64,000 nucleotides of DNA, taken from a virus. Its lineage: Duplodnaviria; Caudoviricetes. Within the stretch, counting starts at the first letter, position 1; each line of letters opens with the position of its first letter. This document shows positions 285 through 45,758 of this stretch, piece by piece. Where the stretch lies: positions 32,001-96,000 of IMG/VR virus record IMGVR_UViG_3300021540_000004; one strand, 5' to 3'. The position numbers and the translations under genes are program-made. Below the pieces are notes generated by a model. That model was not told the origin of the DNA, ran no database searches, and saw only the letters and a list, made by a program, of their open reading frames with translations.

Positions 285-1379
285 TTAGAAGTTAGTGTAT
301 TTTTTATGAGTCATTGCAATTGTCTCATCATCCATATCAAGATACCTCAATGTAGTCTCCAAGCTCACATGACCCATTAACTTTTGAACTTGATCTATAG
401 GCATACCTTTCTTGATCATTGTCGTGCAAAAAGTCCTCCTGAATTTGTGTGGATGTATATCTATATCCAAATATTCACCTATCCGTCTAAAAACCTTATC
501 AACACTTGTAATTGATAAAGGACTACCAATATTTATGTTTGATTCTTGAACAAACATATAAATACTATCATCCTCCCTTAATCGGAGGTATTGGAGCATG
601 TAATTTTTTGCTTTTTCACTAAAATAGATTACTCTTTCTTTATCACCTTTACCATGGACTAAACCTTTACATTCATCAAAATTAATATTATCCGTTTTCA
701 AACTAACTAGTTCACCAACACGAATACCACTACTTAATAATAATTCAAACATTGCTTTTGTCCGCATTGTCCGAATGCTTAATTCATTCTTATTCTTAAG
801 ATAAATATTCCTATTAATGAACCATCGCATTTTCTCTATTTCCTCATAAGTAAATGCTTTTTTAATCTTTTTAGGTTCTTTAACTGGAGGAATACGTAAC
901 ATTGGATTTATTAAAATCTTCTCTTCATCAGTTAAAAATCTAAAAAAGGAAGATAAATTCCTACGCATATTATTAATAGTTGCTTTACTACAACCATTCT
1001 GTTCTTGATAAAAAATAAGAAAATCTTTTAAATCTTCACTGGTTAATTCCAGAAACGATTTAATAGACCATTTCTTCAATGCATTTAAAGAATACTTATA
1101 AGCACCTATAGTTTTTTTAGATAAACCTTTAATTTTTTTAACTTTAACAAACTCTTTAATTAAAATTTCATTTGTTTTATCATAATCCAAATCATGATTT
1201 TTAGGATTATCTGCAAATGTTAAATGGTTTGTATTATAGTATAATGATTTATTTAATTCAGATAATTGTTTATTATCCAGTAAATGTTCCATTCCACCTA
1301 ATACATCTTCAATGAATTGTTTTTTATATTCACCAGTTATTGCTTGAAGTTCATTAATCATATTATACATCAACTCCAC
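285..1379 (-). CDS. XerC/D-family tyrosine recombinase (type A paralog)
   Basis: SGIRVGEL (R), HGKGDKER (K), HPHKFRR (HxxR), LMGH, TTLRY (Y); SAM-like core-binding domain. Confidence 0.95.
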   Translation of the reverse strand: MELMYNMINELQAITGEYKKQFIEDVLGGMEHLLDNKQLSELNKSLYYNTNHLTFADNPKNHDLDYDKTNEILIKEFVKVKKIKGLSKKTIGAYKYSLNALKKWSIKSFLELTSEDLKDFLIFYQEQNGCSKATINNMRRNLSSFFRFLTDEEKILINPMLRIPPVKEPKKIKKAFTYEEIEKMRWFINRNIYLKNKNELSIRTMRTKAMFELLLSSGIRVGELVSLKTDNINFDECKGLVHGKGDKERVIYFSEKAKNYMLQYLRLREDDSIYMFVQESNINIGSPLSITSVDKVFRRIGEYLDIDIHPHKFRRTFCTTMIKKGMPIDQVQKLMGHVSLETTLRYLDMDDETIAMTHKKYTNF

Positions 1380-3430: not shown

Positions 3431-4507
3431 TTAGTCTGTTAGTTTTTTATGAGTATGTTTTAATTCAGATTCATCAATAATAGTGTATAACTGTGTTGTA
3501 CTAATTCCTTCATGTCCAAGGTATTCTTTTATCTGTTCAATAGGAACTCCTTTTTTCAAAAGATTACTTGCCATCGTACGTCTAAAACGGTGAGGATGAG
3601 TATTTTCCACTCCACAACTTCTTCCAACGTTACGGACTAATCTTTCAACACCATTCGTCCCTAATTGGTTATGTGGTTTTTTAGAAGATACGAATAAATA
3701 AGGATTATTATCTGTTCTTTCATCCAAATACTGTTCCAATAAGAATTTAGTTGTTTCATTAAAATAACAGACACGTTCCTTATTACCTTTACCTAATACA
3801 ATACAAGTTTTATTACTTATATTAACATCATCAAGTTTTAATCCAACTAATTCACCTACACGCATACCACTACTTAACAGTAATTCAAATATGGCCTGGT
3901 CTCTTAAACTTTTTTTATTAAAAGCAAAACGTAACCTGACAATCTCAGCATTACTAAAAGGTTTCTTAACCCTAACAGGTTCTTTAATCTTATGAATACC
4001 TACTAATGGATTATTAAAAATCAAACCATGAATAGTTAAATATTTAAAAAATGATCTTAAATTACGAACATAATTATTAATCGTAACAACACTAATACCC
4101 TCCTCCTGTTTACACCTCATGAAATATTTAATATCCTCCGCGGTAATCTCCTGTAAACCTTTAGGAACATACTTTAAAAAAGAATCAACCGTACTCCCAT
4201 ACAATTGTAATGTCTTTTCAGATAAACCCTCAACACGTTTACCATCTAAAACAAAATTGATTAACTTCTCATTAGTAACACTAACATCCTCATTGAAATC
4301 AACATATTTAACACTGAAACTATAATCAGCAGCAATACGTTTCAAGTTATTATTTAATTCTACAAATTGTCTGCTTTCAAGTAAATCTTCCATGTCATGT
4401 AAAACATTATTAATTAGTGATTGTGCTGCACCATTATCAAAATCATTATAGATTTCTTTACTTACAGCACCACCAAAACCTTCTAATCCAGTATTTAAAC
4501 CCAACAT
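3431..4507 (-). CDS. XerC/D-family tyrosine recombinase (type B paralog)
   Basis: SGMRVGEL, GKGNKER, HPHRFRR, LGH, TTQLY. Confidence 0.95.
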   Translation of the reverse strand: MLGLNTGLEGFGGAVSKEIYNDFDNGAAQSLINNVLHDMEDLLESRQFVELNNNLKRIAADYSFSVKYVDFNEDVSVTNEKLINFVLDGKRVEGLSEKTLQLYGSTVDSFLKYVPKGLQEITAEDIKYFMRCKQEEGISVVTINNYVRNLRSFFKYLTIHGLIFNNPLVGIHKIKEPVRVKKPFSNAEIVRLRFAFNKKSLRDQAIFELLLSSGMRVGELVGLKLDDVNISNKTCIVLGKGNKERVCYFNETTKFLLEQYLDERTDNNPYLFVSSKKPHNQLGTNGVERLVRNVGRSCGVENTHPHRFRRTMASNLLKKGVPIEQIKEYLGHEGISTTQLYTIIDESELKHTHKKLTD

Positions 4508-4513
4508 AATTTT

Positions 4514-5581
4514 TTAGAACTCCATATATTTTTCATGATTTATTTTTAATTCATCCTGATCAACAATTGCATAAATCAAAGTAGTATCAGCATTAGAATG
4601 ACCTAAAAATTTACTAACTTGCTCTAATGGTGTGCCTTTACGCAAAGCATTAGTCGCCATCGTCCTTCTAAATTTATGCGGGTGTGCATGAACACCAGAA
4701 CTCTCACCATACTCCCTTATCAACCTTTCAACACCCGTAACCTGCAACCTATTATGAGGCTTTTTAGAAGAAACAAATAAAGCCACATTATTATCCTCAC
4801 GAGTACTAAGATAATTCTGCAAAGCAACATTAGTCTGACTATTCATATAACAAGTACGCTGCTTATTTCCTTTACCTGTAACAATAAAACTATTATTATT
4901 AAAATCAATACTAGTACGATTTAAATTAACCAACTCACCAATACGAATACCACTACTCAACAATAATTCAAAAATAGCTAAATCACGTTCTTTATTATGA
5001 TTAATCTTATTCTTCTTATGACTATTCTTCTTATCAAAAATAATAGCATTACGCAACAAAGTAATTTCCTTAGCAGTAAAAGGCTCCTTAACAGACTTCT
5101 TAGATTTAATAGCTGGAAGTTTACGCATAGGACTATCAATAATATACTCCGATTCAATAAGATAATTATAAAAACTACTTAAAACACGTCGCACATTATC
5201 CACAGTACTATTACTACAACCATTCAAATCTTTATAAAACTTAAAATAATCCTTAATATCATTAGTAGTTAAATCAGTTAAAGGTTTAACCGCCCAATCA
5301 CTAAAATTCTTCAAAGTACTACGATAATAACTAATCGTCCTTTTACTACAACCCTGTAATTTCTTCTCAGAAGTAAAATTACGGATTAACTCCTCATTAG
5401 TAACATCATAATCCAAATCCACCACAGGCTTATCCTTAATATTCAAATCATCAGTATGCCTATTCAATGATTTATTCAACTCAGTTAATTGCCTATTATC
5501 CAACAAACCATTCATACTTTCTAATACATCATCAATGAATCGTTTCTTATACTCTGCAAAAACAACATCATACTCTTCCAT
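4514..5581 (-). CDS. XerC/D-family tyrosine recombinase (type A paralog)
   Basis: SGIRIGEL, GKGNKQR, HPHKFRR, LGH, TTLIY; N-terminus EYKKRFIDDVL matches 285..1379. Confidence 0.95.
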   Translation of the reverse strand: MEEYDVVFAEYKKRFIDDVLESMNGLLDNRQLTELNKSLNRHTDDLNIKDKPVVDLDYDVTNEELIRNFTSEKKLQGCSKRTISYYRSTLKNFSDWAVKPLTDLTTNDIKDYFKFYKDLNGCSNSTVDNVRRVLSSFYNYLIESEYIIDSPMRKLPAIKSKKSVKEPFTAKEITLLRNAIIFDKKNSHKKNKINHNKERDLAIFELLLSSGIRIGELVNLNRTSIDFNNNSFIVTGKGNKQRTCYMNSQTNVALQNYLSTREDNNVALFVSSKKPHNRLQVTGVERLIREYGESSGVHAHPHKFRRTMATNALRKGTPLEQVSKFLGHSNADTTLIYAIVDQDELKINHEKYMEF

Positions 5582-8769: not shown

Positions 8770-9186
8770 TTATGGGAATAACTCCATTGCTTTTAACTGG
8801 ATATTTTTTAGGCATTTACGATTCCAGTTAACTTTTTTTAGTTCGTATACTACATATTGTGCTTCTTCTTCGGAGTTGTATGTTCCGAAGTGTTTTTGTT
8901 TTCTACTTTTGGTTAATGGTGAGTAAACAACCCAGTAACCTCCTTTTTTGTTGAAATGATAATATTTTGGTGCATTATCTGTTTCTTGTTTTTTTGTTTG
9001 TTTTTCGGGTTTTCTTGGTGTTATTAATCCATCATCCACTGCATGTTTGTAGAATGTGCTGCATTTATTCAAGCTGATTTGTAGTTTTTCAGCTATTTTT
9101 CGGATAGTCATTCCTTCTCGATAAAGGTCGATGTACTCATTGTATTTGTCTTCCACTATTTTAAATTCAAGCATATTTAACTTCAC
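8770..9186 (-). CDS. HTH plus AP2-like DNA-binding protein
   Basis: GMTIRKIAEKLQIS HTH; HFGTYNSEEEAQYVVYELKKVNW. Confidence 0.65.
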   Translation of the reverse strand: MKLNMLEFKIVEDKYNEYIDLYREGMTIRKIAEKLQISLNKCSTFYKHAVDDGLITPRKPEKQTKKQETDNAPKYYHFNKKGGYWVVYSPLTKSRKQKHFGTYNSEEEAQYVVYELKKVNWNRKCLKNIQLKAMELFP

Positions 9187-9198
9187 CCACTATTTTTT

Positions 9199-9957
9199 TT
9201 AGATTAGTGTTGTTTGTCCATTAGTGTTTTTAATAATATTTTCCTTAATGGATTCATCAACTTTATTTTCATTAGTGTCATTTAATGATGGATTGTTTTG
9301 TTTTACTCCGATGAAGTTATGTGCTTCATGTATTGAATTAATCTCCTCTATATGTGGTAAGGGAATTCCATGAAGTAAATACCGGTTAACTCTCCAACCT
9401 TTATAGAAAGTTTCCTCTAATGTATTCATATGTAAAATACTGCCCCGTACACCATGAATATAGAAATTTAGAACAGACATTTTACAGCTTGTTTCATCTA
9501 AATCTTGACCAATACAATATAGTTGGCCTTTACTATTACAATGTGATGCTAAAAGAAATCGTCCACTTCCGCAACAAGGATCATTAGCAAAACAATTATA
9601 ATATTCTTCAGGTTTTTTATTTATTACCATCTCACCCATTAATTCGGTTATGTGTTGAGGTGTGTAGTATTGTTGTAGGGTTTCCTGTTTTCCTTTTGAT
9701 TGTACATTATCCTCATATAAGTAACCTATTAAGTCGTAGTATGGTTTATCTTGTAATTCTTTGTTCATTTCGTTTATCCATTCGTTGAACATTTCAAAAT
9801 AAGTTTCTTCATTACCATAGAAGCTCTTAGGCGAATATTGGCTTGATGTTTGCATTAAATTTATATCAATGCAGTAATCTAGCCAGTTGTTCCAGATTAT
9901 GCTTCTATCATTGGTTCTTGAGAGTTCATCGAATAGTTCTTCAAATTTAGAACTCAT
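9199..9957 (-). CDS. Truncated HsdM-like N6-methylase domain protein lacking motif IV; ends in QTTLI
   Basis: QYYTP and DPCCGSGRFL present, no NPP[FY]. Confidence 0.75.
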   Translation of the reverse strand: MSSKFEELFDELSRTNDRSIIWNNWLDYCIDINLMQTSSQYSPKSFYGNEETYFEMFNEWINEMNKELQDKPYYDLIGYLYEDNVQSKGKQETLQQYYTPQHITELMGEMVINKKPEEYYNCFANDPCCGSGRFLLASHCNSKGQLYCIGQDLDETSCKMSVLNFYIHGVRGSILHMNTLEETFYKGWRVNRYLLHGIPLPHIEEINSIHEAHNFIGVKQNNPSLNDTNENKVDESIKENIIKNTNGQTTLI

Positions 9958-10055
9958 ATTTTCTCACTTTTTCTCATTTTTTCTTTTGGGATTTTTTAGG
10001 AGTAAAAAATTGTACTCCCTTATATAATATTATGATATACTAATATATAAATATT
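9958..10055 (-). promoter_or_regulatory. Early promoter plus structured leader, copy 1
   Basis: TTTATATA TATA box, TATATCATAATATTATATAAG, GGAGTA/TACTCC hairpin, CCCAAAAGAAAAAA box, AGTGAG RBS. Confidence 0.75.
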
Positions 10056-10282
10056 TCCATCAAATTGGTGGTGAAAAAAACACTAACTCGACAAACGCTT
10101 AACAATCTTACGACTACCCAACCTAATCAAATCATTCAACTCAGCAATCTGATTAACATCAGGATCATCACTCAACACAACACTAATAGTACAATCACAC
10201 CAACCTAAACTAATCTTCTCCTCAACAATATTATCCATACAAAAAACACTCCTTACCTTTAATATTAAATAAAATAAATTTT

Positions 10283-11008
10283 TTAATTCAAACGCTCAAC
10301 AACATTCCAACGAAGCTGAAAACCCGTACCCTTCAAATACCTACGAACCTCAGACCTCGTATACTCCAAACTATAACCAAAACTATCAGCCAATTCCTCA
10401 ACATTCTTACCCGCTAAAAAATCAACACCACCACACTCATTAATCAACTTAAAAATAGGAGTCTCATGCTCCTTATACAACAACTTCTTCAAACTCAAAC
10501 CATTACGACGAAACACCTCATTCAAATAAGGATGTGGAACACCTAAACACTTAATAACCTCACTAAGACTATAACCATCACCTAATAATCGTTCAACATC
10601 ATCAATAATAACCTTATCATTACTAATAACACGATTACTACTACTAGTCTTATTATAACCAAGGTTCTTCCAAATAATATTATTCCTTTTAAAATACTCA
10701 GTTAAAGGAACACTACTCTTATAACCTAAATCCTCACCAATATCCTTTAAAGTATATCCCTGGTTTTTCATACGGATAATATAAGATAATCCTCCTTTAT
10801 CATAAATCAGCTGATTAATATTACGAACCTCTTCATTACATGGTAATTCAGACCAGGTTAAATCATATTTCTTAAGATAATTATAGATTATTTTAGGATT
10901 ACTATAACCTAATTCTTCAGCAGTTTCACGTTGAGTTTTACCCTCAGCACGAGATTGTTTAATAAACTCCAATCCCCCTGCATTATCAATTACATCACTA
11001 GAATTCAT
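10283..11008 (-). CDS. Tandem-HTH protein
   Basis: Repeated GG...G.T....E.LGY units (about 4). Confidence 0.6.
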   Translation of the reverse strand: MNSSDVIDNAGGLEFIKQSRAEGKTQRETAEELGYSNPKIIYNYLKKYDLTWSELPCNEEVRNINQLIYDKGGLSYIIRMKNQGYTLKDIGEDLGYKSSVPLTEYFKRNNIIWKNLGYNKTSSSNRVISNDKVIIDDVERLLGDGYSLSEVIKCLGVPHPYLNEVFRRNGLSLKKLLYKEHETPIFKLINECGGVDFLAGKNVEELADSFGYSLEYTRSEVRRYLKGTGFQLRWNVVERLN

Positions 11009-11013
11009 AAATA

Positions 11014-11367
11014 CTACACCTCATCTCTTATGTTGGTTTCGTAGAATTTACATCTTGGATCCATTATCCTACCATCACCACATTTACCTTTCAAATGATT
11101 ATACCTGTTACAAGTATAACAATGTGGAGGTACTGTAATATCCTTATTAATCCATACATCATCAACATTTATATGTTCTTCGCCTTGCCATACCGGTTCC
11201 AGACTTAAATGAACTTTCTTCAATTCCGGTATATTACCATGTGCTCTTTCTTCAGTGTATCTTATTTTAAATATTCTACTATAATATGTTCCATCAGGTT
11301 CTATTATATCTACCAATGCATCTTCTGGTAGTTTACTTAATACTTCTTGTAATTTTTTATTTTTCAC
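11014..11367 (-). CDS. Hypothetical protein with C-terminal Cys cluster
   Basis: CYTC...C...C; overlaps upstream gene. Confidence 0.6.
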   Translation of the reverse strand: MKNKKLQEVLSKLPEDALVDIIEPDGTYYSRIFKIRYTEERAHGNIPELKKVHLSLEPVWQGEEHINVDDVWINKDITVPPHCYTCNRYNHLKGKCGDGRIMDPRCKFYETNIRDEV

Positions 11368-11839
11368 CTTGCAACTCCTCCCTTAAATATTCTGCATAAG
11401 TTTTACATTTCTCCATATCTTCATCAAGATTCTTACTATCGCATCTCACAGAATATTTAATAATATTACCTTTTAAAAATCCAATATATTCTTCTTGACT
11501 TAATAATCCCATCTTAAACGCTTCAATGGGACTTAAACCATTTTTATTATAATATTTTGGATTGTAAATATCATCAATTGTTTTAACTTTATTACCTTCA
11601 ACATTAATATCAATATTTTCTGAATTTAATATGTTAAAGTATGCTTCTTTTAAACATTCTTTTAAGGAGTTTTTATCAAATGTTACTTTATTATCTTCAG
11701 CATAAATTGTTGTTGATAAGTTTTCACTTAATACTTTAGCGATTTCTGATATTATAGCTAATTTAGTATTTCCTTCAAATGTTGAAGATTTAATAGTTAA
11801 TTTTCTTTGAGATGCTTCCCTATCAATTTGTAACGACAT
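11357..11839 (-). CDS. DUF3310-like phage protein
   Basis: NPKYY, GFLKGNIIKY..R...KN..EDMEK. Confidence 0.7.
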   Translation of the reverse strand: MSLQIDREASQRKLTIKSSTFEGNTKLAIISEIAKVLSENLSTTIYAEDNKVTFDKNSLKECLKEAYFNILNSENIDINVEGNKVKTIDDIYNPKYYNKNGLSPIEAFKMGLLSQEEYIGFLKGNIIKYSVRCDSKNLDEDMEKCKTYAEYLREELQGEK

Positions 11840-11878
11840 AATTAACCTCCTCCTTAAAAAAAAATATTTTATCTTTTA

Positions 11879-12616
11879 TCACTCTGTTTCTTTATATAAT
11901 TTCCAGGCATCAGGAATATTTATCTCATAGACATGTGCACTTGTAGCATGATAATCTATACCTTTAAAATATACTTGTTTATTTAATTTATAACTATTAT
12001 ATTCCTCCATTAATTTTAAACCAAAATACGTTAAGAATAGCATATTACCATACCATGCACCATAAATATCATTGCTCCTGAACAGACAATGTAATATTAA
12101 TTCATTCTCATGTCTTATTGTTGCTTGCAAAAATTGTAAGCAAGGTATATCTTCAACACTATTATCTAAGAATGGATTGTATATTGTTGCAACAGCACGA
12201 TTAGTGTTACTATTATTATTTAACCTGTTAATCATAACATTAAATTGATTTATAACTGTTACTGGTTCAGTATCTAATGCTTTTTGTTTGAATATACGGT
12301 TAGGATAACTGTAAACAAAACTTTTATCACCAGTTAAATTTATCTGATCAGTATTGTCTACTGCTGTTGCATATTCCATTAATGCTTCACCTTTCAAACC
12401 ATAATTATTCAAGTCAAATCTTCCTTCTTTTAAAGATTTACGGTAGTATTCTAAACCAGTCATGTCATCTGGTTTTTCATACACTTCAGGGAAGGGATTA
12501 TTGATGAATATATGGTTTCCTAGGCTTTCTTGTATTTTACTATCATCTTTATTTGTTAGTTCACCATATACTAGTATGTTTTTTAGTATATGGTGTAATG
12601 CATTTATTATATGCAA
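11879..12616 (-). CDS. thyA: Thymidylate synthase family (ThyA or dUMP hydroxymethylase)
   Basis: YSYPNR, NRAVA, catalytic PCLQ, FRSND..GAW..N (Asn indicates dUMP substrate), SAHVY. Confidence 0.8.
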   Translation of the reverse strand: MHIINALHHILKNILVYGELTNKDDSKIQESLGNHIFINNPFPEVYEKPDDMTGLEYYRKSLKEGRFDLNNYGLKGEALMEYATAVDNTDQINLTGDKSFVYSYPNRIFKQKALDTEPVTVINQFNVMINRLNNNSNTNRAVATIYNPFLDNSVEDIPCLQFLQATIRHENELILHCLFRSNDIYGAWYGNMLFLTYFGLKLMEEYNSYKLNKQVYFKGIDYHATSAHVYEINIPDAWKLYKETE

Positions 12617-28668: not shown

Positions 28669-29853
28669 CTACAACCACCCCTCCATATCTTCAACATCAC
28701 TCTTAGAAACATTCTTAAAAATATAATGCTCAATACTCTCCAAACGACTAGATAAAACATCCAAATCCTTAGACTTACGCAAATTCTCACGCTCCAACTC
28801 AATATATTCCTTACTCTTATAAGTTAAATTCTTCAAATTCCATCCAATCATAACTGCATCCATATAACGCATATACTCCTCTTTCAAAGAAGCTGGATCA
28901 TCTAAAAAATAAGCTTTATGAACATTACTTTTACTACGGCCTTGCAAAGAATCAACATTATCTACACTCATACCCGCATTATGCAAACGACTAGCATGAA
29001 ACTTCCTTAACATATGTGGTCTTAAACGAGTATAAGTTCCTTTTTTACCGAGATTCAGTTTTTCATTCAATACATTAAAAACATAATTCATGTTAGAAGC
29101 ACCAATATCAAATAGTCTATCTGTATTATGTATTTCTTTTTCTTTGCTTACTAAATGAACGTTTATTGCATTAGCTGCTTCAGGTGAGCAAAAAGTAGTA
29201 TAATGTTTATTTGTTTTTTTACGTAGTATTTCAAATTGAGGAACAATATCTTCTCTGTCTTTTAATATGCTTAAAACTTCATAGATATTACTACTATGAT
29301 GATAGGAGTATGTTGCATCAATATAATCTTGTACTGTAAGGTTGGAAACTTCTGTTCTTCCACAACCGCTTGATATTATGAATAGTATTATGGCCCTGTC
29401 TCGTATTTTAGCTATATCTAGTGCTTTTTTTATTATTTCTTCATCGGGTAGGTCTCTGTAGTTTATTGTTCTTGGTGTTTTTACGTTTTTTTCGCTTATT
29501 GGTGGTAAGTCTCCTATTTCTATTTCGCAGTGTCGGTATATTGTGCATATACAGGTGAAGTATCTTTTTGCTGTGTTTTTTAGGTAGTCTTTGTATAGTG
29601 CTGCTCTGAATTTTAGTAGTCTTGTTCTTATTGTTCTGTTTTTCCACCTCACTCTTTCTTCTTCTTCTTTTTCGGCTTCTTTTATCAACTCTTTCATTGA
29701 TTTGTTGTTTTGTTTTGTGTATTTTGTTATTACTATACGGTATATCTCTTGGGTTGATAATGAAATGTTTCGTATATCTATTATGTCTTGGAGAAATTTT
29801 TCATCTTGCATATACATTAGTATCACTTTTATATTTATATTTGGTTTTTCCAA
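28669..29853 (-). CDS. Tyrosine recombinase/integrase (methanogen-type clade)
   Basis: SSGCGRTE (R), RKKT (K), HMLRKFH, LQGR, HKAY (Y). Confidence 0.9.
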   Translation of the reverse strand: MEKPNINIKVILMYMQDEKFLQDIIDIRNISLSTQEIYRIVITKYTKQNNKSMKELIKEAEKEEEERVRWKNRTIRTRLLKFRAALYKDYLKNTAKRYFTCICTIYRHCEIEIGDLPPISEKNVKTPRTINYRDLPDEEIIKKALDIAKIRDRAIILFIISSGCGRTEVSNLTVQDYIDATYSYHHSSNIYEVLSILKDREDIVPQFEILRKKTNKHYTTFCSPEAANAINVHLVSKEKEIHNTDRLFDIGASNMNYVFNVLNEKLNLGKKGTYTRLRPHMLRKFHASRLHNAGMSVDNVDSLQGRSKSNVHKAYFLDDPASLKEEYMRYMDAVMIGWNLKNLTYKSKEYIELERENLRKSKDLDVLSSRLESIEHYIFKNVSKSDVEDMEGWL

Positions 29854-33082: not shown

Positions 33083-34136
33083 CTATAAAATATTATACTC
33101 CTTCCCAGACAAAAAAACATTCACAACAACAGTAAACTCCTGATTAACAACACCACCATCACCAAAACCATCAACACCCCTAAAAAACATAACATTACCC
33201 ATAACACCCACATACAACTCCTTCAACCAACGAGGATTAGTCTTAATATAAGTCTCATGAACCATATTCTTACTACGACCCTGCAAAGCATCCACATACT
33301 CAGCACCCAAACCAATAATTAGACGCATGAAACTTCCTCAAAGTATGAGCACGAAAAAAACGATACCTACCCTTAAAACCCCAACCCATACGATCATTCA
33401 ACTCCTGAAAACGAGACAACAACAAACTACTACTAAAATCAAACAACCTATCATCCAAACACAAACCATCACGAGTCAACAAATAATCAACAATAGCACC
33501 ACTAGCCTCAGGAGAACAAAAAGTATAATACCACTTATCAGTCTTAACCCTACGCAAATACAAAGTAGGAACAACATCACCACGACCCTTCAAAAAATCC
33601 AAAACACTCCGCAAATCACCACCTTTATGATAATCCCTGGTACCACGAACAAAATCACCAACAGTCAAAGACAAAGTTTCAGCCTTAGCAGTACCACTAC
33701 TAGCCATAAACAAAATAACAGCCTTCAAATCCAAATCAACACTATTCACAGCATTCAAAATATCATCATGACTAGGCAAATCACCATAACCAGTAACATA
33801 ACCCTTGTCATAACTAGCCGGAGGAATATAAGGCAACTCCAACTCAAAATGCAAATAAAAAGTCTTAACTTTCTGAAAATAAGTTTTACTAGTATTCGGA
33901 GAAAAATCCTCCTCCAACAAAAAATTACGGAACTTCAACAACCTACGCTTAATACGACGATTCTTTAAAACAATACCATTATCCTCATCTTCCATAGCCT
34001 CACTTAACAATTCAGAAACACTCTTTCGATGAACTTTACAATACAAATTCAAAGAAGAAATATAACCTTTACGAGTACTATCTTTCAAATTACGATCTAC
34101 ACAAAATTGCTCAAAAAATTTATCTTCAAGAATCAT
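33083..34136 (-). pseudogene. Tyrosine recombinase, paralog of 28669..29853, with a +1 frameshift
   Basis: HTLRKFHASN continues as IGLGAEYVDALQGRSKNMVHETY after removing one T near 33317; catalytic Tyr lies in the second frame. Confidence 0.85.
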
Positions 34137-38287: not shown

Positions 38288-38446
38288 AAAAAATTTTTAT
38301 TTTATAAATATTTTTTTTCCTTTAATTTCTGTTGAGAAACCGGAAAAAAATTTTTAGAAAAAAACTCCTATTATCTTCTTATAAAGTAATAGAAAAATTT
38401 TTTAAAGCATATGCGTCTTCACTATATACTCTGACAAAATAAAAAA

Positions 38447-38917
38447 ATGGGATATGTGAAAGATAACAAAAACTTACTAACATATAACCAATGGTCCGCA
38501 GGAGAATATGAAAACAGCCCAGACATATTTGTAGTAAAATATTATATAAAAAATATAAATACTACTGAATATTCAGACATCGGTGAATTATCGATAAAAC
38601 TAACAAGAACAGAAAATGGTGGAACTGGAGGATCATATGGACAAATATCCTACGAAAATAGTATACCTAACAAAACATTAACTGCTTCAGCAACAATTAA
38701 AACAAAAGAAACTGAAGTAGACATGATATTACTTGACAAGCTAAGTACTCAGGAATTTAAAGCGAAATATGTGCGGGTGCCGACAAATTTTTGTGGTAAT
38801 GTTAATGTTTCATTAGAAAGTAATGAATTAAACAGTTCATTCGCTATTCAATTTAATAATCGGGGAAATAAAAACGATTTCTTATATGTTGACAATACAT
38901 CATTAATTATAAGTTAG
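38447..38917 (+). CDS. Receptor-binding-domain cassette 10 (inverted; has own ATG GGA TAT before the site)
   Basis: GTGAAAGATA at 38456; NLL.YNQWSAGEY, SDIGE.S, YVDN. Confidence 0.85.
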   Translation: MGYVKDNKNLLTYNQWSAGEYENSPDIFVVKYYIKNINTTEYSDIGELSIKLTRTENGGTGGSYGQISYENSIPNKTLTASATIKTKETEVDMILLDKLSTQEFKAKYVRVPTNFCGNVNVSLESNELNSSFAIQFNNRGNKNDFLYVDNTSLIIS

Positions 38918-39369
38918 TGAAAGATACTAATAATTTATTAAATTTTAACTATTGGTCCGCAGGCGAGTATGAAAATAAACTAAATTACATGATAACAATT
39001 GATTCTGGAGCAATAATTACTAATGAATACTCAGATATTGGTGAATCATCAATAAAACAAATAAGAACTGCAGATGGTGCAAGTGGTGGGTCATATATTA
39101 GAATAAACTATAACAATAGTATCATTAATAAAACCATAACAGCATCAGCAACAATCAAAACAACAGACTATGATGTAGATGTAATTATTGGAGAAAAAGC
39201 TGATGTAACTAATGCATATTCAACAGTTGTACCAGCTAATTCCTGTAGGAATGTTAGTGTTTCATTAGTTAGTTCATCTTCGAATACTTCCTTTTTTATT
39301 CAAGTCAATAATCGTGGAAATAAAAATTCTGTTGTGTATGTTGATAATATCTCATTATTTTCGAGTTAG
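38917..39369 (+). CDS. Receptor-binding-domain cassette 9 (inverted)
   Basis: GTGAAAGATA at 38917; same motifs. Confidence 0.85.
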   Translation: MKDTNNLLNFNYWSAGEYENKLNYMITIDSGAIITNEYSDIGESSIKQIRTADGASGGSYIRINYNNSIINKTITASATIKTTDYDVDVIIGEKADVTNAYSTVVPANSCRNVSVSLVSSSSNTSFFIQVNNRGNKNSVVYVDNISLFSS

Positions 39370-39812
39370 TGAAAGAAAACCAAAATCAGATGGAGCATAA
39401 TATATGGAGTGGAACAGAATATAAAAACAACCTAGAAGACATAGATTACATCACAAATACATTAAATGCAAATCAAAGCACGTATTGGTCTAGTATTGGA
39501 GAAACATCACTACACCTAAAATCAACAATAAACAGTTACCAACATGCTATTTTTAAAAAAATAAATGTCGAACAGGACACTAATTTAACAGTAGAATGTG
39601 ATATATTACATAAAACCGGTGAAAACATACAATTAAGGATATTTCAAGATACTGCCAATTTTACTGATGTTGACATACCTATAAATAATAATCCTATGCA
39701 TGCCAGTGTATCCAGTTTAATAACCAAATCCCAAACCATACATATACTATTAATTTTAAGAAATAATACTGATGAAGCATACATTGATAATATAAAACTA
39801 ACTACGGATTAA
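39369..39812 (+). CDS. Receptor-binding-domain cassette 8 (inverted)
   Basis: GTGAAAGAAA at 39369; NIWSGTEY, SSIGETS, YIDNI. Confidence 0.85.
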   Translation: MKENQNQMEHNIWSGTEYKNNLEDIDYITNTLNANQSTYWSSIGETSLHLKSTINSYQHAIFKKINVEQDTNLTVECDILHKTGENIQLRIFQDTANFTDVDIPINNNPMHASVSSLITKSQTIHILLILRNNTDEAYIDNIKLTTD

Positions 39813-40230
39813 TTCAATATTATCTAAATAAAATGATTTTTTATATAATGTTGTACACATAACTTTAATAGACGAGTTTGTTGTTTCTGCTGAAACGGAA
39901 AATCTTCCCAGTGAATTTTCAGGTATTCTAACTATTCCAATATTATCCCCATCATTAATAAATATATTAACCACATTATTTGGTGAATATACATCTGCTT
40001 CAAAAGTGAATGAATTACTGCCCGTTAAACCAGTTAATACACAAACAGTTATGCTACCCATTAATGTTTCATGTGTTCTAGTTATTTTTAAACTATTTTC
40101 ACCTTTTGTGCTCCATTCTTTTGATGGTTGGATTATTGAACCGTTCATATTACTGAAATCTGTAGTGTTTTGTAAGTAATCCGTTCCACTCCATTGGTTA
40201 TATGATAGTAGGTTGTTTGTATACTTTCAC
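39798..40230 (-). pseudogene. Receptor-binding-domain cassette 7 with a 1-nt insertion in its head site
   Basis: GTGAAAG[T]ATACAAACAACCTA; removing 40223 restores VKDTNNLLSYNQWSGTDY in frame with ORF 39798..40148. Confidence 0.8.
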
Positions 40231-40649
40231 GGAACAGTAATTAATGCAATATCATCAATATATATGGAAGCATTCATAGTGTCTGATAAAAAACGAACCC
40301 CCCTAATATTTTCATTATCAACTTGAATAGATAGCGTTTGTATTTGATTACTTGGCTGAAACATAACATAAGAAGTACTGTCTGTTCCATATTTAACCAT
40401 TACTCTACCAGTACCTTCAGGAGAATATATTTTTACTGTTAATTTATAATTATCCGTTGGAAGTGTAATATCATGGTCTGATATATAATCCACAATATTT
40501 GGGCCTGTTCGTGTTAATTTTAAACTTCTCTCACCATCATAACTCCAGTTATTAGATGAAATAGGGTTTCTAGTAAATCCTGTAATGTTTTGATTATAAT
40601 CTGTTCCACTCCAAACATTATATGGCAATAAGTTATTAGTATCTTTCAC
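40227..40649 (-). CDS. Receptor-binding-domain cassette 6
   Basis: GTGAAAGATA at 40649; NVWSGTDY, GERSLKL, YIDDI. Confidence 0.85.
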   Translation of the reverse strand: MKDTNNLLPYNVWSGTDYNQNITGFTRNPISSNNWSYDGERSLKLTRTGPNIVDYISDHDITLPTDNYKLTVKIYSPEGTGRVMVKYGTDSTSYVMFQPSNQIQTLSIQVDNENIRGVRFLSDTMNASIYIDDIALITVP

Positions 40650-40655
40650 AGAATA

Positions 40656-41117
40656 TTAAATGGATTCATAAGTTATTTTTAGATCATCTACAAAAATACT
40701 TGAACCAACAACATCATGAGTATATAATTGTAATCTTAAACGTTCAACTGCATCACCAGTAGTTAATGTTATTGTTGTTTTTTGTGTTGTATTTGCAGGA
40801 ATAGTAGTAAATACTTGATGATTAACATTATTACCCTGTTCTATTGCCATTAAAACAGCATCATTATTTGATGTTTTATAAGTTGCTGATACAGTTACTA
40901 AAACATTATGTTCTGTGAATGGTTGTAATAAATACATACTATATCCATTTTGACTTAAACGTGTTAATTTTAAACTTTCTTCACCAATACTAGAATATTG
41001 GTTAGTTGATTCGATATTAACACAACCAACAACATTAGGTAAAAATTCTGTTATTGTGTGGTTATATTCCCCAACACTCCATGCGTTATGGTTTAAGATA
41101 TTATTATTATCTTTCAC
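40656..41117 (-). CDS. Receptor-binding-domain cassette 5
   Basis: GTGAAAGATA at 41117; NAWSVGEY, SIGEESLKL, FVDDL. Confidence 0.85.
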   Translation of the reverse strand: MKDNNNILNHNAWSVGEYNHTITEFLPNVVGCVNIESTNQYSSIGEESLKLTRLSQNGYSMYLLQPFTEHNVLVTVSATYKTSNNDAVLMAIEQGNNVNHQVFTTIPANTTQKTTITLTTGDAVERLRLQLYTHDVVGSSIFVDDLKITYESI

Positions 41118-41566
41118 AAACTAGTTAATGATAAATTATCAAAATAGGAGGACTTATTTAGGCTTTTAATAGTAATACGTAAAGCAACACTAGTAACTTC
41201 TTTGTCTTGATGAGATTTTGCATTTAAAGTAATTAGTTGTGGTTTATCCGAAGATGGAATAGAAATGTAGTCCATATGTTGTGAATCGTCAGAATAAAAA
41301 AAAACAATACCTAATATTATTTCTGATGTTGGTGTGTAAATAGTGGATTTTCCTTGTAGGTCATTATATTCTCCATATAGTAAATATTGTACCCACATAT
41401 ACTGGTCATCAATAGTAGTGGCTTTAAATGATTGTTCTCCAATACTTGAATATTCATTTGTTAATGTAATTTTTAATCCTGGAGCAATGATTAACCCTGA
41501 AGTATTTTTATTGTATTCTCCACCACTCCAAATGTTGTGTGGTATTAGATTGTTATTATCTTTCAC
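41114..41566 (-). CDS. Receptor-binding-domain cassette 4
   Basis: GTGAAAGATA at 41566; NIWSGGEY, SIGEQS, YFDNL. Confidence 0.85.
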   Translation of the reverse strand: MKDNNNLIPHNIWSGGEYNKNTSGLIIAPGLKITLTNEYSSIGEQSFKATTIDDQYMWVQYLLYGEYNDLQGKSTIYTPTSEIILGIVFFYSDDSQHMDYISIPSSDKPQLITLNAKSHQDKEVTSVALRITIKSLNKSSYFDNLSLTSL

Positions 41567-42015
41567 AAACTAATTAATGATAAATCATCCCAATAGCATG
41601 GTTGATTAATAGCATATATTAAAATACGTAAAGCAACACTAGTAACCTCTTTATCCGGGTCGGATTGTAAGTTTAATGTAATTAGCTGTGGTTCATCCGA
41701 ACGTGAAACAGTTACACCACCCGTGCTAAAAGAACCATCAGAATAATAAAAAACAATATATAAACTACTTCTTCCTAGTGGTGTGTAGATGATTGATTTT
41801 CCTTGAACATTAGTATATTCTCCAAGTACTGTTGATTGTGCCCAATGATTGTTTTCATTGATTCTTTCACATTTAAAAGAGTGTTCTCCAATAATTGAGT
41901 ATTCATTTGTTACCATAACATCAAATCCAGTAAAACATGTTAATTCGGAGATGTTTTTAGTATATTCCCCTGCAGACCATTGGTTGTGTGTTAGTAGGTT
42001 ATTGTTATCTTTCAC
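41563..42015 (-). CDS. Receptor-binding-domain cassette 3
   Basis: GTGAAAGATA at 42015; NQWSAGEY, IIGEHS, YWDDL. Confidence 0.85.
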   Translation of the reverse strand: MKDNNNLLTHNQWSAGEYTKNISELTCFTGFDVMVTNEYSIIGEHSFKCERINENNHWAQSTVLGEYTNVQGKSIIYTPLGRSSLYIVFYYSDGSFSTGGVTVSRSDEPQLITLNLQSDPDKEVTSVALRILIYAINQPCYWDDLSLISL

Positions 42016-42018
42016 AGA

Positions 42019-42468
42019 TTAAACATACTCTAATGTAAAATTATCAACAAAAACAATATTATTTTCAGAAGATAAAATCCTCAAAGAAACAGATTTAAGA
42101 GTTTCTTGTTTAGTTGGGTATGTATTAACAATTATTTTATTAAAAGTGTTATTAACTGGTACAGAAGCTCCTCTAATGTCTTGAGTATTATCTAAATATG
42201 TAAAAACAATTAATAAACTAGTTGTGCCAGATGTTAAAATATTTGCTGTTCCTTTAAAAGTAGTGTTGGTTGGATTACTTAATATGCAGTCTAAACGTAG
42301 ATATGAGTTTCCAATACTATTTATTTGTAGACAGTTCTCACCTATTATGGAATTCTTGTTTGATAAATATGTGGTTACTCCACTACCAATGTAAAAATCA
42401 TTTAATGTATTATTATATTCTCCACTACTCCATTGATTAAATGTTAAGAGATTATTGGTATCTTTCAC
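42019..42468 (-). CDS. Receptor-binding-domain cassette 2
   Basis: GTGAAAGATA at 42468; NQWSSGEY, IIGENC, FVDNF. Confidence 0.85.
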   Translation of the reverse strand: MKDTNNLLTFNQWSSGEYNNTLNDFYIGSGVTTYLSNKNSIIGENCLQINSIGNSYLRLDCILSNPTNTTFKGTANILTSGTTSLLIVFTYLDNTQDIRGASVPVNNTFNKIIVNTYPTKQETLKSVSLRILSSENNIVFVDNFTLEYV

Positions 42469-43403
42469 TGACTTGAAATAAAATTTATATTATCTAAATA
42501 ACATGAACTATTAATATTTCCATTATTCACAACTTGTACTACAAATCTAACGTTTTCGGAAGTAGTAACTAATGATAATGTTGTATTAGTACAAGTATTT
42601 TTAGGTATTATTGTAGATACATGATTTAGGTTAGTTACATCTGAAAATTCATATAAAAATATTTTTATTGGCGATTTAGTGTTAATATCTAATTTTACAG
42701 TAATAGTTTTTGAATATATGCTGTTACGATAGTTTATTCTTACCCATGATGTTTCTTGTAGTTTTATTACTTTTAATGAGTTTTCACCAATACTACTCCA
42801 TTCATTAGTATGTATTAATGAAGTATGTTCAGATGATTCTACATCGAATCCGGTTTTTTCTTTTTCATATTCACTTCCAGACCATTGGTTAAATGTTAAT
42901 AGGTTATTAGTATCTTTCACAAACACGGATAAAATATTCGATTTCCACACAGAACCTGAGACGGTGACTTCAGCGTATACATAGTATATGCCTACTCCTA
43001 GTATTGTTCCGTCGAAAGTGTAATTGTATCGGCTGTTGGTGCTGTCCCATGTTGCTGTTCCTAGTACTGTTCCATCAACTTTTTTAACTGTACAGGTTAC
43101 ATTGCTTCCGATACCTGTGATTCCGCTTATGTACACTGTTTCGGTGGTGGTGTCTGTTATCCCTATCTTGGTTAGGCCTTCGAATGATGGTGTTCCGTCG
43201 TGGAAGCATAGGTATGGGTTTCCTGTTGTGGTGATGTATCGTGTTAGTCTTTCGTTGTTGATTCTATCTTTGTTGGTGAATGATGTTATTTTTCCTTGTA
43301 CATCTACAGTGTTTATTTTTTTGTCTAGTAAAGTGTCTACTTCGGTTTCTGTGTAAAATATTCCTTTTAACCAAGTTAAAAAGTCTGTTGTAAATTTTGC
43401 CAT
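42465..43403 (-). CDS. Tail fibre/adhesin expression locus: constant N-terminus fused in frame to cassette 1
   Basis: N-terminal LTWLKGIFYTETEVDTLL anchor shared with other fibres; internal VKDTNNLLTFNQWSG starts at GTGAAAGATA 42920. Confidence 0.85.
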   Translation of the reverse strand: MAKFTTDFLTWLKGIFYTETEVDTLLDKKINTVDVQGKITSFTNKDRINNERLTRYITTTGNPYLCFHDGTPSFEGLTKIGITDTTTETVYISGITGIGSNVTCTVKKVDGTVLGTATWDSTNSRYNYTFDGTILGVGIYYVYAEVTVSGSVWKSNILSVFVKDTNNLLTFNQWSGSEYEKEKTGFDVESSEHTSLIHTNEWSSIGENSLKVIKLQETSWVRINYRNSIYSKTITVKLDINTKSPIKIFLYEFSDVTNLNHVSTIIPKNTCTNTTLSLVTTSENVRFVVQVVNNGNINSSCYLDNINFISSQ

Positions 43404-43514: not shown

Positions 43515-45758
43515 TTAACTAACATTCACATGACACATTCCAGCTGCAACAATCTTATTAGTCGAATTAGCAAAGTATACACGAATATGATATACTCCTG
43601 CATTATTTATTGTATATTCATACCAACCATAACTCAATGGATATCTAGTAAATGATGCTCCATTATTCCAATCAATATAAACATATCCGTTTAAATAATT
43701 ATTGTTCTGGTCAGAGCAACCAAGATATAATTTCGCCCCGGCAGATATGGATATATTACTTAAATTCTCTGGTGATGAACGCCAATCTTTACCAGTATGT
43801 GTGATATGTGCTTTAAATACTTTTACACTGGACATAGCATTTAATCCACTGTATACTGCTCCACTGGTAATTAACTTATCACTTCCACTTGTTCCACCAC
43901 TACTACTATCTATTATGCTGGATGTGTTTAATTTATCTAACTCAATGGTATTATCTGCAATATTACTATTAATAATAGTTTTACTCAAATCATTCGTTAA
44001 CTCAGACAATTTAGTTGGAATGTCGCTTGTTGATGCTATTTGATACCATTCAGACCAAGATGGGAGATTTGTAGTTGAATCAAGACTTCCTGCAGTTCTA
44101 AAAAAGATTTTATGAGCGTTATTATTCTGAAAAGCAATCTGTGCAACTTTCCCACCAATACCTGAAGATATAACTAACAAGTGCATTGAAGGATTACCTG
44201 TCCAAGGTAAATCACCATCTAAATTAGACATTTTTCCATATCCACAAACATACTTACCATTATGCTCATTTAAATACAATGCATCTATATTATGTGAATG
44301 AGCAGTTTCTCCTATCGTAGTAATATTCAAATCACTCCAAGGATGTGTATGGCCAGTATCAGACTTCCCACTCAAGGCAGTGTTTAATGCTTTTCCTTGT
44401 TTAGCAGATAATGCATCACTTGAAGAATCAGAAGACAAACTATCTACAACATTTACCTTATTAAAAGTAGATTGTGCAATATTGGAACCGTTTGCAAGTA
44501 ATAAATTAGTGTTTCCACTTGTTTTACTAATTTTTCCACTTAATCCACTGTATACTGCTCCACTGGTAATTAACTTACTAGAATCCTCTGTTCCACCACT
44601 TGTAGTATCATAAACATCACTATTCAGTTTACTTAGTGTAACACCAGTATCTTTTATCTTGAATTGTCCATTATTTAATTCTAAAGTTGAGTTGTCCGCA
44701 GTATATACATCAACTAAATCTGTAACATTAATATATAAATGTTCATCAGTAGCACTGCTGTCTTTTGTGTTGATAATAAAATCTAAATATTTATCCCCTA
44801 CTTTATACCCTGATACTGGTTGATTTGCTTTTGTACATGTTCCTACACTTGCACTTTTTACAAGATAATCTTTTGGTATATCAATTACACCAATACTGGA
44901 ATCACCTTGTTTAATTTCATATGTTGCAATATAACCAGTTGTAGCAGTGCTTAATTTTGTTAAAGTAACTGTTTTTCCATTTAATGCAGTGTTTAATGCT
45001 TTTCCTTGTGCTGCTGACAGTGCGTCTGTTGTGGAATCAGAATAAAGACTATTTTCAACATTAGGAATTTCATCAGTTGTGGGGAATGTTTTCCATTCAA
45101 GCCAAATATCATCACCATTATTATCTTTACCAAACATTACTCGATAATAAACTTTATTTTTAACATTATCATCGGTTATTGGGAATAAAATTTGAATAAG
45201 ATAATTAGCCATCCTATAATCAATTACACGAAGATAAAAAGCCCTTTTATCTGTGAATGGCATATTATTTATAGTTGGAACACTATTTTTTGAACAAGTG
45301 AATAATCCTTCTTGTTTATAATTGTTTAAGTCATTGTTTACTGTTTCTCCATCAACAGTAATAGTCGCGGGTATTGGATTATTTCCAGTACCTCCAAGAT
45401 ATCTCCAACTACCCCATGTTGAATTTTTATAACTTCTTACATAAACCATCGTTGTATATGATTCGAGGTTATAAACAGTTTGAATTAAAGTACTATTAGC
45501 ATCACTAAAATTTTTATTTTCAATAATGCAAGTTGAACTACCAATAAACGGTTTATTTTTTAATGTTGCACTATTACCACTTGTACAAGTATAAATACCT
45601 TGTGTTGTAATATCATTTAAATCCGTATCTTCAAGTAATTCTTGTGTTACCCCTATATCTGCACCCTTGTGACTATGCACAACATCTGCTTTACCAGTTA
45701 ATTTATTATCAAATAGCTTAACAGAAGCTTCTTCTAAAATTGTTTCTTTATCCGCCAT
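43515..45758 (-). CDS. Mosaic tail fibre with three knob-like domains
   Basis: DLN.....G.Y.C...Q.....Y.R....W..W units; DALSA.QGKALN repeats. Confidence 0.75.
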   Translation of the reverse strand: MADKETILEEASVKLFDNKLTGKADVVHSHKGADIGVTQELLEDTDLNDITTQGIYTCTSGNSATLKNKPFIGSSTCIIENKNFSDANSTLIQTVYNLESYTTMVYVRSYKNSTWGSWRYLGGTGNNPIPATITVDGETVNNDLNNYKQEGLFTCSKNSVPTINNMPFTDKRAFYLRVIDYRMANYLIQILFPITDDNVKNKVYYRVMFGKDNNGDDIWLEWKTFPTTDEIPNVENSLYSDSTTDALSAAQGKALNTALNGKTVTLTKLSTATTGYIATYEIKQGDSSIGVIDIPKDYLVKSASVGTCTKANQPVSGYKVGDKYLDFIINTKDSSATDEHLYINVTDLVDVYTADNSTLELNNGQFKIKDTGVTLSKLNSDVYDTTSGGTEDSSKLITSGAVYSGLSGKISKTSGNTNLLLANGSNIAQSTFNKVNVVDSLSSDSSSDALSAKQGKALNTALSGKSDTGHTHPWSDLNITTIGETAHSHNIDALYLNEHNGKYVCGYGKMSNLDGDLPWTGNPSMHLLVISSGIGGKVAQIAFQNNNAHKIFFRTAGSLDSTTNLPSWSEWYQIASTSDIPTKLSELTNDLSKTIINSNIADNTIELDKLNTSSIIDSSSGGTSGSDKLITSGAVYSGLNAMSSVKVFKAHITHTGKDWRSSPENLSNISISAGAKLYLGCSDQNNNYLNGYVYIDWNNGASFTRYPLSYGWYEYTINNAGVYHIRVYFANSTNKIVAAGMCHVNVS

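Follow-up and report, generated by a model that had tools for sequence, protein, structure and literature searches.

Tail-fibre switching by site-specific recombination has been described in several viruses. In the Rin shufflon of Bifidobacterium dnaJ2-integrated prophages, a constant receptor-binding protein (RBP) N-terminus (Rc) is accompanied by several start-less variable C-terminal segments (Rv), each preceded by a short asymmetric crossover site (11-bp rix); a tyrosine recombinase is predicted rather than a serine invertase, and isomers are seen by comparing related prophages (Mavrich et al. 2018, PMC6109161). In the Min (p15B), Gin (Mu) and Cin (P1) systems, serine invertases act at sites at the constant/variable boundary, changing the fibre C-terminus and hence host range, and Min has several segments (PMC6109161). 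In the haloarchaeal viruses phiCh1, phiH1 and ChaoS9, two full-length opposed fibre genes flank int1, whose product, the tyrosine recombinase Int1, changes the expressed fibre by inversion, in what is essentially a two-partner exchange (PMC6471424). In the R64 pilV shufflon (Rci/sfx), multiple C-terminal segments of one constant gene, flanked by alternating inverted short asymmetric sites, are exchanged by a tyrosine recombinase and serve a conjugative pilus adhesin.

The locus described here lies in a 120-kb tailed virus of a gut methanogen (IMGVR_UViG_3300021540_000004), within a 64,000-nt stretch of that record (positions 32,001 to 96,000; hereafter the window). It comprises one expressed and nine spare tips for a tail fibre, and close relatives show tips being swapped at the same short site by DNA inversion and deletion, a way to change which cells the virus can attach to. 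No description of such a locus was found in the literature on shufflons, archaeal tail fibres and methanogen proviruses, although a prior description in the methanogen-virus compendium (doi 10.1038/s41564-023-01485-w) cannot be excluded, and the MSTV1 paper contains nothing on inversion.

Organization of the fibre locus

The ten-cassette arrangement reported in the initial annotation was confirmed. The ORF listing gave a fibre gene at 42465..43403 (-), encoding 312 aa, in which a constant part of 161 aa is joined at GTGAAAGA to a tip of ~150 aa. Cassette ORFs followed at 42019..42468, 41563..42015, 41114..41566, 40656..41117, 40227..40649 and 39798..40148 on the - strand, and at 38447..38917, 38917..39369 and 39369..39812 on the + strand, so that six of the nine silent tips are co-oriented with the expressed one and three are inverted, the two blocks converging at 39798-39812. 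The features of the locus and the two recombinase genes discussed below are as follows.

42921..43403 (-): constant N-terminal part (161 aa) of the tail-fibre gene, ending in SNILSVF immediately before the site; homologues 35-50% identical in 17 database proteins
42465..42920 (-): cassette 1, the expressed tip (beginning VKDTNNLLTFNQWSG), fused in frame at site 42913-42920
42019..42468 (-): cassette 2, silent and co-oriented; its site (42461-42468) contains the TGA stop of cassette 1
41563..42015 (-): cassette 3, silent and co-oriented
41114..41566 (-): cassette 4, silent and co-oriented; tandem duplicate of cassette 3 (about 72-80% DNA identity)
40656..41117 (-): cassette 5, silent and co-oriented
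40227..40649 (-): cassette 6, silent and co-oriented
39798..40230 (-): cassette 7, co-oriented; its site (GTGAAAG-T-ATA) has a 1-nt insertion (extra T at 40223), so a fusion at the core would be out of frame, and it is probably a dead cassette
39369..39812 (+): cassette 8, inverted, of the 'VKENQN' type, with site variant GTGAAAGAA
38917..39369 (+): cassette 9, inverted; closest paralogue of cassette 1 (48% aa identity)
38456..38917 (+): cassette 10, inverted, at the far end of the array; preceded in frame by ATG GGA TAT
38412..38455 (+): conserved far-end flank with a TATA-like CTATATAC...GACAAAA block, shared with the related loci L043, L045, L048, L050 and L052; function unknown (promoter or accessory site)
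33083..34136 (-): tyrosine recombinase syntenic with the array in six other loci, here split by a +1 frameshift (extra T near 33318) that leaves the catalytic Tyr in another frame
28669..29853 (-): intact paralogous tyrosine recombinase/integrase, 39% identical to the enzyme of the related locus L002; candidate to act in trans

The sequence GTGAAAGA occurred 13 times in the window against 3.4 expected, and none of 100 shuffles reached 13. Nine of the 13 occurrences were cassette starts in one codon phase, and three of the nine silent sites were inverted relative to the expressed one. Stop codons of upstream cassettes lay inside or just before the next site, as GTGA, TAGTG or TAA plus 3-6 nt. 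All ten cassettes aligned as one domain family.

Predicted fold of the tips

Structure prediction, which had been proposed beforehand as a check on the suggestion that the tip is a CBM-like jelly-roll, bore that suggestion out at the level of the fold. The AF2 model of cassette 1 (pLDDT 88.9) was a CBM4/11/22-like beta-sandwich jelly-roll, and Foldseek matched it to CBA120 TSP4, the Kp7 fibre gp52 and CBM4, CBM11, CBM22 and CBM61, all at probability 1.0 (TMq 0.52-0.70). At the sequence level the support was weak, as only 2 of 25 cassettes hit Pfam CBM_4_9, with a best E of 0.002, below the curated cut-off; membership of the CBM4/9 family is not settled, and ligand binding was not assayed.

Cassette starts and sister arrays

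As all nine silent cassettes in the window start with GTG, and several have GTGA or TAGTG overlaps, it was considered whether each could be translated by stop-start coupling into a free glycan-binding protein of ~150 aa, a reading that the initial annotation had named as the one that would overturn its own if accompanied by a single invariant arrangement. This reading fails at family level. Sister arrays used other cores, uniform within a locus: the G179 array, with 29 cassettes, used ATAAAAGA and the G221 array used GTAAAAGA, beginning with ATA or GTA, which cannot initiate. In the window, 0 of 9 sites had an SD-like motif, against 10 of 30 long ORFs, and 9 of 9 starts were GTG, against 3 of 30 for the long ORFs of the virus. 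Val is GTG in only 9.6% of this virus's codons, and the internal Val of every expressed fibre is also GTG. Moreover, three cassettes are antisense to the operon, and the same cassettes are found fused to the shaft in relatives. Independent translation is therefore considered very unlikely. Cassette 1 was not on record as a free ORF. A sigma-70 promoter and terminator scan showed no enrichment and does not apply to archaea, and no RNA data set was listed among the sequencing runs, so that expression was not examined.

Every GTGAAAGA-type locus whose sites were listed showed the core at its cassette starts, and in 70 unique such sites synonymous positions varied beyond +10.

Rearrangements among relatives

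Comparison of cassette order in related genomes, also named in advance as a test, showed switching at the core. Searches of three collections with the constant part, or with an alignment of it, found only L001 and the L002 contig; pattern scans of viral contigs for the shaft end plus site found nothing, and scans for the VKENQN start found only L002 plus chance matches. Among database fibre proteins, constant parts 92-99% identical carried tips only 26-35% identical, and three of these proteins carried the VKENQN tip. Orthologues of cassette 8 were the first inverted cassette in the window, L001, L002 and G187, and the expressed tip in the fibre proteins P0005, P0009 and P0015.

Two viruses with 99%-identical constant parts differ by reverse-complementing the cassette block. 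L043 and L045 had co-linear flanks at 96-99.6% identity, while 3.5-kb and 1-kb cassette blocks were reverse-complemented at 99.5% and 95%; junctions changed exactly at the core, and only 9 bp were shared between the two recombining sites. L052 and L054 had an identical shaft end, joined to VKENQN in one and to another tip in the other. In L050/L051, the constant part was fused at the core to the orthologue of the silent cassette 9 of L048, with the array collapsed by deletion. The tip of the fibre protein P0020 was 96% identical to the silent cassette 5 of L002, on a shaft 91% identical to that of L002.

Gene conversion or homologous recombination, as in pilE/pilS or vlsE, was also considered, whereby silent cassettes would donate sequence through the conserved ~55-nt 5' region and 3' motif using host RadA, with no dedicated site. 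The first ~55 nt of the cassettes were 65-88% identical, and L001 had a 42-nt perfect inverted repeat at the expressed and VKENQN sites. However, junction switches mapped to the core boundaries, the constant-part site and the VKENQN site shared only 9 bp, the longest identity between any two site contexts in the window was 20 nt, whole blocks were inverted reciprocally rather than copied, and the core differed between loci but was uniform within each locus. This alternative is regarded as unlikely.

State of the array in the present virus

For this virus itself the evidence for switching was weaker. Its arrangement was 100% identical in five independent contigs from at least four samples, including an unbroken 8.8-kb Logan contig, and no alternative fusion protein with this constant part was on record. 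The L002-type array was likewise identical in two samples, and the VKENQN cassette sat in the same inverted position in four diverged loci, so the common state is stable. Sequencing runs were examined as contigs only; no strand-changing joint was listed, and the listed joints that skip sequence had sides of 20-24 nt in low-complexity DNA and were set aside.

The only hint of a flipped form was an assembly-graph branch in one sample (sequencing run X2), in which Logan contigs ended at 39376 and 42920, exactly at two sites (S8 and S1), with 30-nt overlaps. Both 30-mers are unique in the window, and the k=31 graph therefore branches only if a 'cassette-9-end | core | cassette-1' junction is present in that sample. 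This branch showed only one of the two reciprocal junctions, and no junction contig was displayed. Set against the five invariant contigs, it leaves undecided whether isomers of this virus exist, whereas in relatives alternative isomers with junctions at the site were observed.

Recombinases in the record

Neither a serine recombinase of the Resolvase/invertase family (PF00239, for which control genomes scored) nor a reverse transcriptase (PF00078) was found in the 120-kb record. By these criteria the locus is neither of the Gin/Cin/Min/Hin serine-invertase kind nor a diversity-generating retroelement, and the variation is in whole cassettes, not in adenine-directed point changes.

A syntenic tyrosine recombinase was present in the window, L002, G001, G187, G233 and L052, but the window copy carries a real +1 frameshift, its truncated product being found on 3 contigs. 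The same recombinase family occurred in 56 of 314 family genomes, whereas the arrays occurred in only 10, so it may simply be the integrase. Its co-occurrence with arrays (7 of 10 against 56 of 314 genomes) was rejected as proof of the invertase, because both ride on one provirus family, and the records behind the ENA loci were not searched for recombinases. Whether a dedicated recombinase is encoded with the locus is accordingly not decided by these observations. Five other intact tyrosine recombinases lie in the record. Candidates for the switching enzyme are the gene at 28669..29853, the Xer-like genes at 285..1379, 3431..4507 and 4514..5581, and the intact L002 orthologue of 33083..34136.

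It is possible, though less likely than a working switch, that the array is a frozen relic, built and once shuffled by site-specific recombination, with the fibre now always carrying cassette 1 and the other nine cassettes being inert passengers. The invariant assemblies, the frameshifted recombinase and the damaged site of cassette 7 favor this reading, while the open frames and perfect cores kept by nine of ten cassettes, the five intact recombinases and the X2 branch speak against it.

Interpretation

The locus is best explained, with good confidence, as a cassette array for switching the receptor-binding tip of a tail fibre in a Methanobrevibacter-type tailed virus. In this view, one promoter-driven gene encodes a constant shaft, joined at a ~14-bp site (consensus roughly G-T-T-W GTGAAAGA T-A, with an invariant 8-bp core) to a CBM-like jelly-roll tip, and nine further tips lack their own translation signals, each starting at the same core in the same phase and ending at a stop codon in or just before the next core. 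A site-specific recombinase, most likely a tyrosine recombinase, would exchange DNA at the core. Exchange between the expressed site and an inverted site would flip the intervening block and put a new tip on the shaft, with the VKENQN cassette acting as the usual gateway, since once it is flipped every other cassette faces the expression site. Exchange between co-oriented sites would delete cassettes and lock in a formerly silent tip.

The anatomy, the predicted fold, the start-less sister arrays, and the inversion and deletion junctions at the core among close relatives are shown, whereas the identity of the enzyme, glycans as the ligands, and continued switching in this particular virus are inferences. 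As its syntenic recombinase is broken, switching here would need the paralogue or another of the five intact tyrosine recombinases, and may be rare. The array is therefore a true shufflon-type locus, but it may be slow or frozen in this virus. The interpretation given in the initial annotation, namely inversion between the expressed site and opposite-facing sites without a diversity-generating retroelement, is supported, with the caveats on this virus given above and two more: deletion between co-oriented sites also switches tips, which had not been foreseen, and the layout is closer to Rin/Min than to R64, to which it had been likened.

A more speculative and doubtful possibility is that the array works as a two-ended, integron-like cassette store. 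Inversions would then exchange tips both on the fibre shaft and at a second, promoter-bearing far end, which would make a free CBM domain (decoy, receptor mask or superinfection block), while recombination between direct sites would excise or insert single cassettes, giving irreversible 'class-switch' progeny with locked host range, while lysogens keep the master library of up to 29 tips.

Methanobrevibacter are the main methane producers of animal and human guts, very few of their viruses are known, and host range is the main obstacle to using or even isolating such viruses. A family of methanogen viruses carrying libraries of 10-29 exchangeable glycan-binding tips would be the largest receptor-binding shufflons described and the first multi-cassette shufflon in an archaeal virus, where only the two-partner phiCh1-type module appears in the reviews consulted. 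It would explain how these viruses track variable cell-wall glycans, and would give a ready panel of natural binders for methanogen surfaces, as well as an 8-bp site and recombinase pair that could serve as a genetic tool in methanogens.

Comparison with known systems

The closest known systems are Rin, Min and phiCh1. The array shares with Rin the constant N-terminus followed by start-less variable segments, the short asymmetric site before each segment, the prediction of a tyrosine recombinase and the detection of isomers by comparing relatives. Homology to Rin was not examined. The array differs in its archaeal host, in holding 10-29 cassettes rather than a few, in its CBM-like jelly-roll tips, in a core that doubles as the stop codon of the preceding cassette, in a recombinase that does not abut the array (4-5 kb away, beyond the lysis genes) and is broken in this virus, and in the occurrence of deletion derivatives.

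With Min, Gin and Cin it shares inversion at the constant/variable boundary, but those systems rely on serine invertases and have far fewer alternatives. With phiCh1, phiH1 and ChaoS9 it shares an archaeal tailed virus as its setting and a change of the expressed fibre by inversion, with a tyrosine recombinase here inferred as the enzyme, but in place of two full-length opposed fibre genes, one shaft serves an array of 10-29 tip-only cassettes with an 8-bp core. As in R64, multiple C-terminal segments and short asymmetric sites serve one constant gene, with a tyrosine recombinase as the most likely enzyme, but most sites here are in direct repeat, with a small inverted block, rather than alternating in orientation.

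Genomic context and organization of the cassette array

The window belonged to an IMG/VR virus record of 120,184 bp, rated 89% complete by CheckV, with a GC content of about 30%. The region held tailed-virus genes, including Baseplate_J, fibre repeats and Ig-like lysins, among which a Pei-type enzyme was found in relatives. A relative's copy was located in a Methanobrevibacter MAG, and the sequencing runs holding the sequence were animal faeces and gut metagenomes.

Everything described in the initial annotation of the array was present. The fibre gene was followed by six further cassettes on the same strand and three on the opposite strand, and the site GTGAAAGA occurred 13 times against 3.4 expected, a count that no shuffled sequence reached. 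Nine of these occurrences were cassette starts in one phase. The main features were:

42465..43403 (-), fibre gene, with 161 constant residues (the shaft) ending ...SNILSVF, then VKDTNN...
39798-39812, point of convergence of the two cassette blocks
40223, extra T inside the site of cassette 7
41863-41870 (-), extra GTGAAAGA inside cassette 3, out of phase with the cassette frame, probably a chance occurrence but a potential off-target site
38412-38455, conserved flank at the far end of the array

The ten cassettes, together with 15 from two relatives, aligned over their whole length and shared W13, Y18, S42, G45 and E46 as well as the C-terminal Y.DN motif. An AlphaFold model built on this 25-sequence alignment was confident (mean pLDDT = 88.9; pTM = 0.83) and all-beta. 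Foldseek placed it with three groups, all at probability 1.0, namely the tip domains of phage CBA120 TSP4, the Klebsiella phage Kp7 fibre gp52, and the CBM4, CBM11, CBM22 and CBM61 modules, whereas Pfam gave only sub-threshold CBM_4_9 and mannanase-GBD hits. The predicted fold is therefore a carbohydrate-binding-type jelly-roll, glycan binding itself being an inference.

The far-end flank contained a conserved TATA-like block (CTATATAC..GACAAAA), lying 13-35 nt before the far-end site in six loci (the window, L045 at about 7302-7345, L043, L048, L050 and L052; L numbers denote related loci). An in-frame ATG preceded the site in the window and L045, but not in L043, L048 or G001 (G numbers denote Methanobacteriaceae genomes). 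The block may be a leaderless promoter for a free far-end cassette, or an accessory site.

Silent cassettes versus independent genes

As every silent cassette in the window started with GTG, the alternative reading that each is an independent gene was tested in other genomes. A profile search of 314 Methanobacteriaceae genomes found arrays in 10 of them, and cassette loci of this class include the L002 and GTAAAAGA loci. The largest array seen was in G179 (locus L024, contig C71, 16030-31060), with 29 cassettes over 15 kb (2 co-oriented, 27 inverted), each beginning at ...ATAAAAGATA, with the stop TAA inside the core. In G221, each cassette began at GTAAAAGATA. As ATA and GTA are not start codons, those cassettes cannot be translated on their own. 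The core was uniform within a locus but differed between loci, as expected for a strand-exchange site.

Within the GTGAAAGA group, 70 unique sites carrying the core were collected, the core therefore being fixed by the way the sites were selected. They showed conservation from about -4 to +10, while synonymous positions varied beyond that. Every cassette start listed in these loci carried the core, except that of cassette 7 of the window. Moreover, Val was encoded by GTG in only 9.6% of this virus's Val codons, yet the internal Val of every expressed fibre was GTG. None of the nine sites had an SD-like motif, compared with 10 of 30 long ORFs, and all nine putative starts were GTG, against 3 of 30 for the virus's real genes.

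Exchange of tips at the core among related viruses

A database search with the constant part returned 17 homologs. Several pairs and trios had constant parts 92-99% identical but tips only 26-35% identical. Three proteins carried the VKENQN-type tip, which in the window (cassette 8), L001, L002 and G187 is the first inverted, silent cassette. In L001, a perfect 42-nt inverted repeat (the last 34 nt of the shaft plus the core; 10403-10452 and 12186-12235) preceded both the expressed tip and the inverted VKENQN cassette, the array of that MAG being split over two contigs that end inside it (C86 and C90).

Retrieval of the loci allowed direct comparisons. L045 possessed the shaft, 11 co-oriented cassettes and one inverted VKENQN cassette, while L043, whose shaft is 99% identical, possessed shaft-VKENQN followed by 14 cassettes, all inverted. 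By blastn, the flanks were co-linear (96-99.6%), while 3.5 kb and 1 kb of cassettes were reverse-complemented (99.5% and 95%, respectively). The same shaft end was joined to cassette 1 in one and to VKENQN in the other, and the same far-end flank was joined to VKENQN in one and to another cassette in the other. The switch fell exactly at GTGAAAGA, and the two parental sites shared only 9 bp. In all, 5 of 12 L045 junctions kept their upstream 45 nt in L043 but had a different cassette downstream. Just beyond the tip array, L045 also contained a second, unrelated array (9100-12475, -) of at least six tandem ORFs of ~160-200 aa, each opening with LLLKE(T/R)xxx(E/Q)D, with one copy in L043 at about 19535. 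It is possibly another cassette system and was not present in the window.

The contrast between a shaft joined to VKENQN and a shaft joined to another tip was repeated in L052 and L054, with 40 of 40 identical shaft-end bases. L048 had 17 cassettes, whereas in L050 and L051 (two samples) a 96%-identical shaft was fused at the core to the ortholog of the silent, co-oriented cassette 9 of L048 (42 of 42 nt after the core) and the array had collapsed, which is the product expected from recombination between direct sites. The fibre protein P0020 had a shaft 91% identical to that of L002 and a tip 96% identical to the silent cassette 5 of L002. In G179 and G207, orthologous cassettes (88-92% identity) sat in different neighbourhoods, and the tip expressed in G179 was silent in G207. 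The initial annotation, which read the locus as an inversion switch for the fibre tip, had set a single invariant arrangement in deep reads and all relatives, with each cassette translated as an independent protein, as the observation that would count against it, and the relatives proved not to be invariant. Its interpretation was supported by the relatives.

Arrangement in the virus under study

For this virus itself, the evidence was mixed. Contigs from at least four samples were 100% (one 99.97%) identical to the window across the array and showed the same arrangement, one of them being an unbroken 8.8-kb Logan contig, and no other fusion with this shaft is on record. However, in sequencing run X2, a probable source sample at about 10x depth, Logan contigs ended at 39376 and at 42920 with 30-nt overlaps. 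These positions are the end of the core of the cassette 8 site and the first base of the expressed site, respectively. Both 30-mers were unique in the window, and no two site contexts shared more than 20 nt. A k=31 graph branches at just these two nodes if the sample also contains a junction of the cassette 9 end, the core and cassette 1, one of the two junctions made by inverting between sites 8 and 1. The reciprocal junction was not in the graph and no junction contig was shown, so that this is a hint and not proof. The other break with a 30-nt repeat (43870) is explained by a real 3-copy repeat. Repeats of 70 nt, near-identical to 86% identical, within and between the 747-aa and 684-aa fibre genes (43841-43910, 44529-44609 and the gene at 45.8-47.9 kb) break short-read assemblies at this position.

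Candidate recombinases

Neither a serine recombinase nor a reverse transcriptase was found in the record. The tyrosine recombinases of interest were:

33083-34136 (-), tyrosine recombinase split by a +1 frameshift (extra T near 33318)
28669..29853, intact paralog, 39% identical
285-5581 (-), three intact Xer-like tyrosine recombinases interleaved with an N6 DNA methylase

The first lies a few kb beyond the array, past the small ORF and the lysins, and was found there in the window, L002, G001, G187, G233 and L052. In the window it carried an extra T (AATTATTGG against AATATTGG in L002), which moves the C-terminal 84 codons, with the catalytic HETY, to another frame. The truncated 278-aa product was on three contigs, so the frameshift is real. 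The syntenic family occurred in 56 of the 314 genomes, against 10 with arrays, and may therefore be the integrase of this provirus lineage. Which enzyme acts on the array was not identified. A fourth intact Xer-like recombinase lies just outside the window, and the Xer-like genes and the methylase look like a separate recombinase/methylase module.

Proposed mechanism

The analyses showed one expressed shaft-tip fusion, silent in-phase cassettes bounded by a core that also supplies the stop of the preceding cassette, and inversion and deletion products at the core among relatives. The remainder of the model is inferred. In this view, a tyrosine recombinase pairs two cores, inverted pairs flip the block between them, and direct pairs delete. 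The VKENQN cassette would be the first partner, after which all other cassettes would face the shaft. The commonest state is stable, so switching is probably rare or limited to some phase of the life cycle, and in this virus it may be crippled.

Comparison with known systems

Among archaeal viruses, the papers examined (PMC10791045, PMC6471424) mention only the phiCh1/phiH1/ChaoS9 module, with two opposed fibre genes around int1. No paper describing multi-cassette arrays in methanogen viruses was found, although the search did not extend to one key compendium. The design is that of the Rin shufflon of Bifidobacterium prophages, with its Rc/Rv parts, an 11-bp rix site and a tyrosine enzyme, and it resembles, less closely, Min/Gin/Cin and R64. 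Within this known design, the present arrays are of high interest for their size (10-29 tips), their host domain, and the co-existence of inversion and deletion outcomes.
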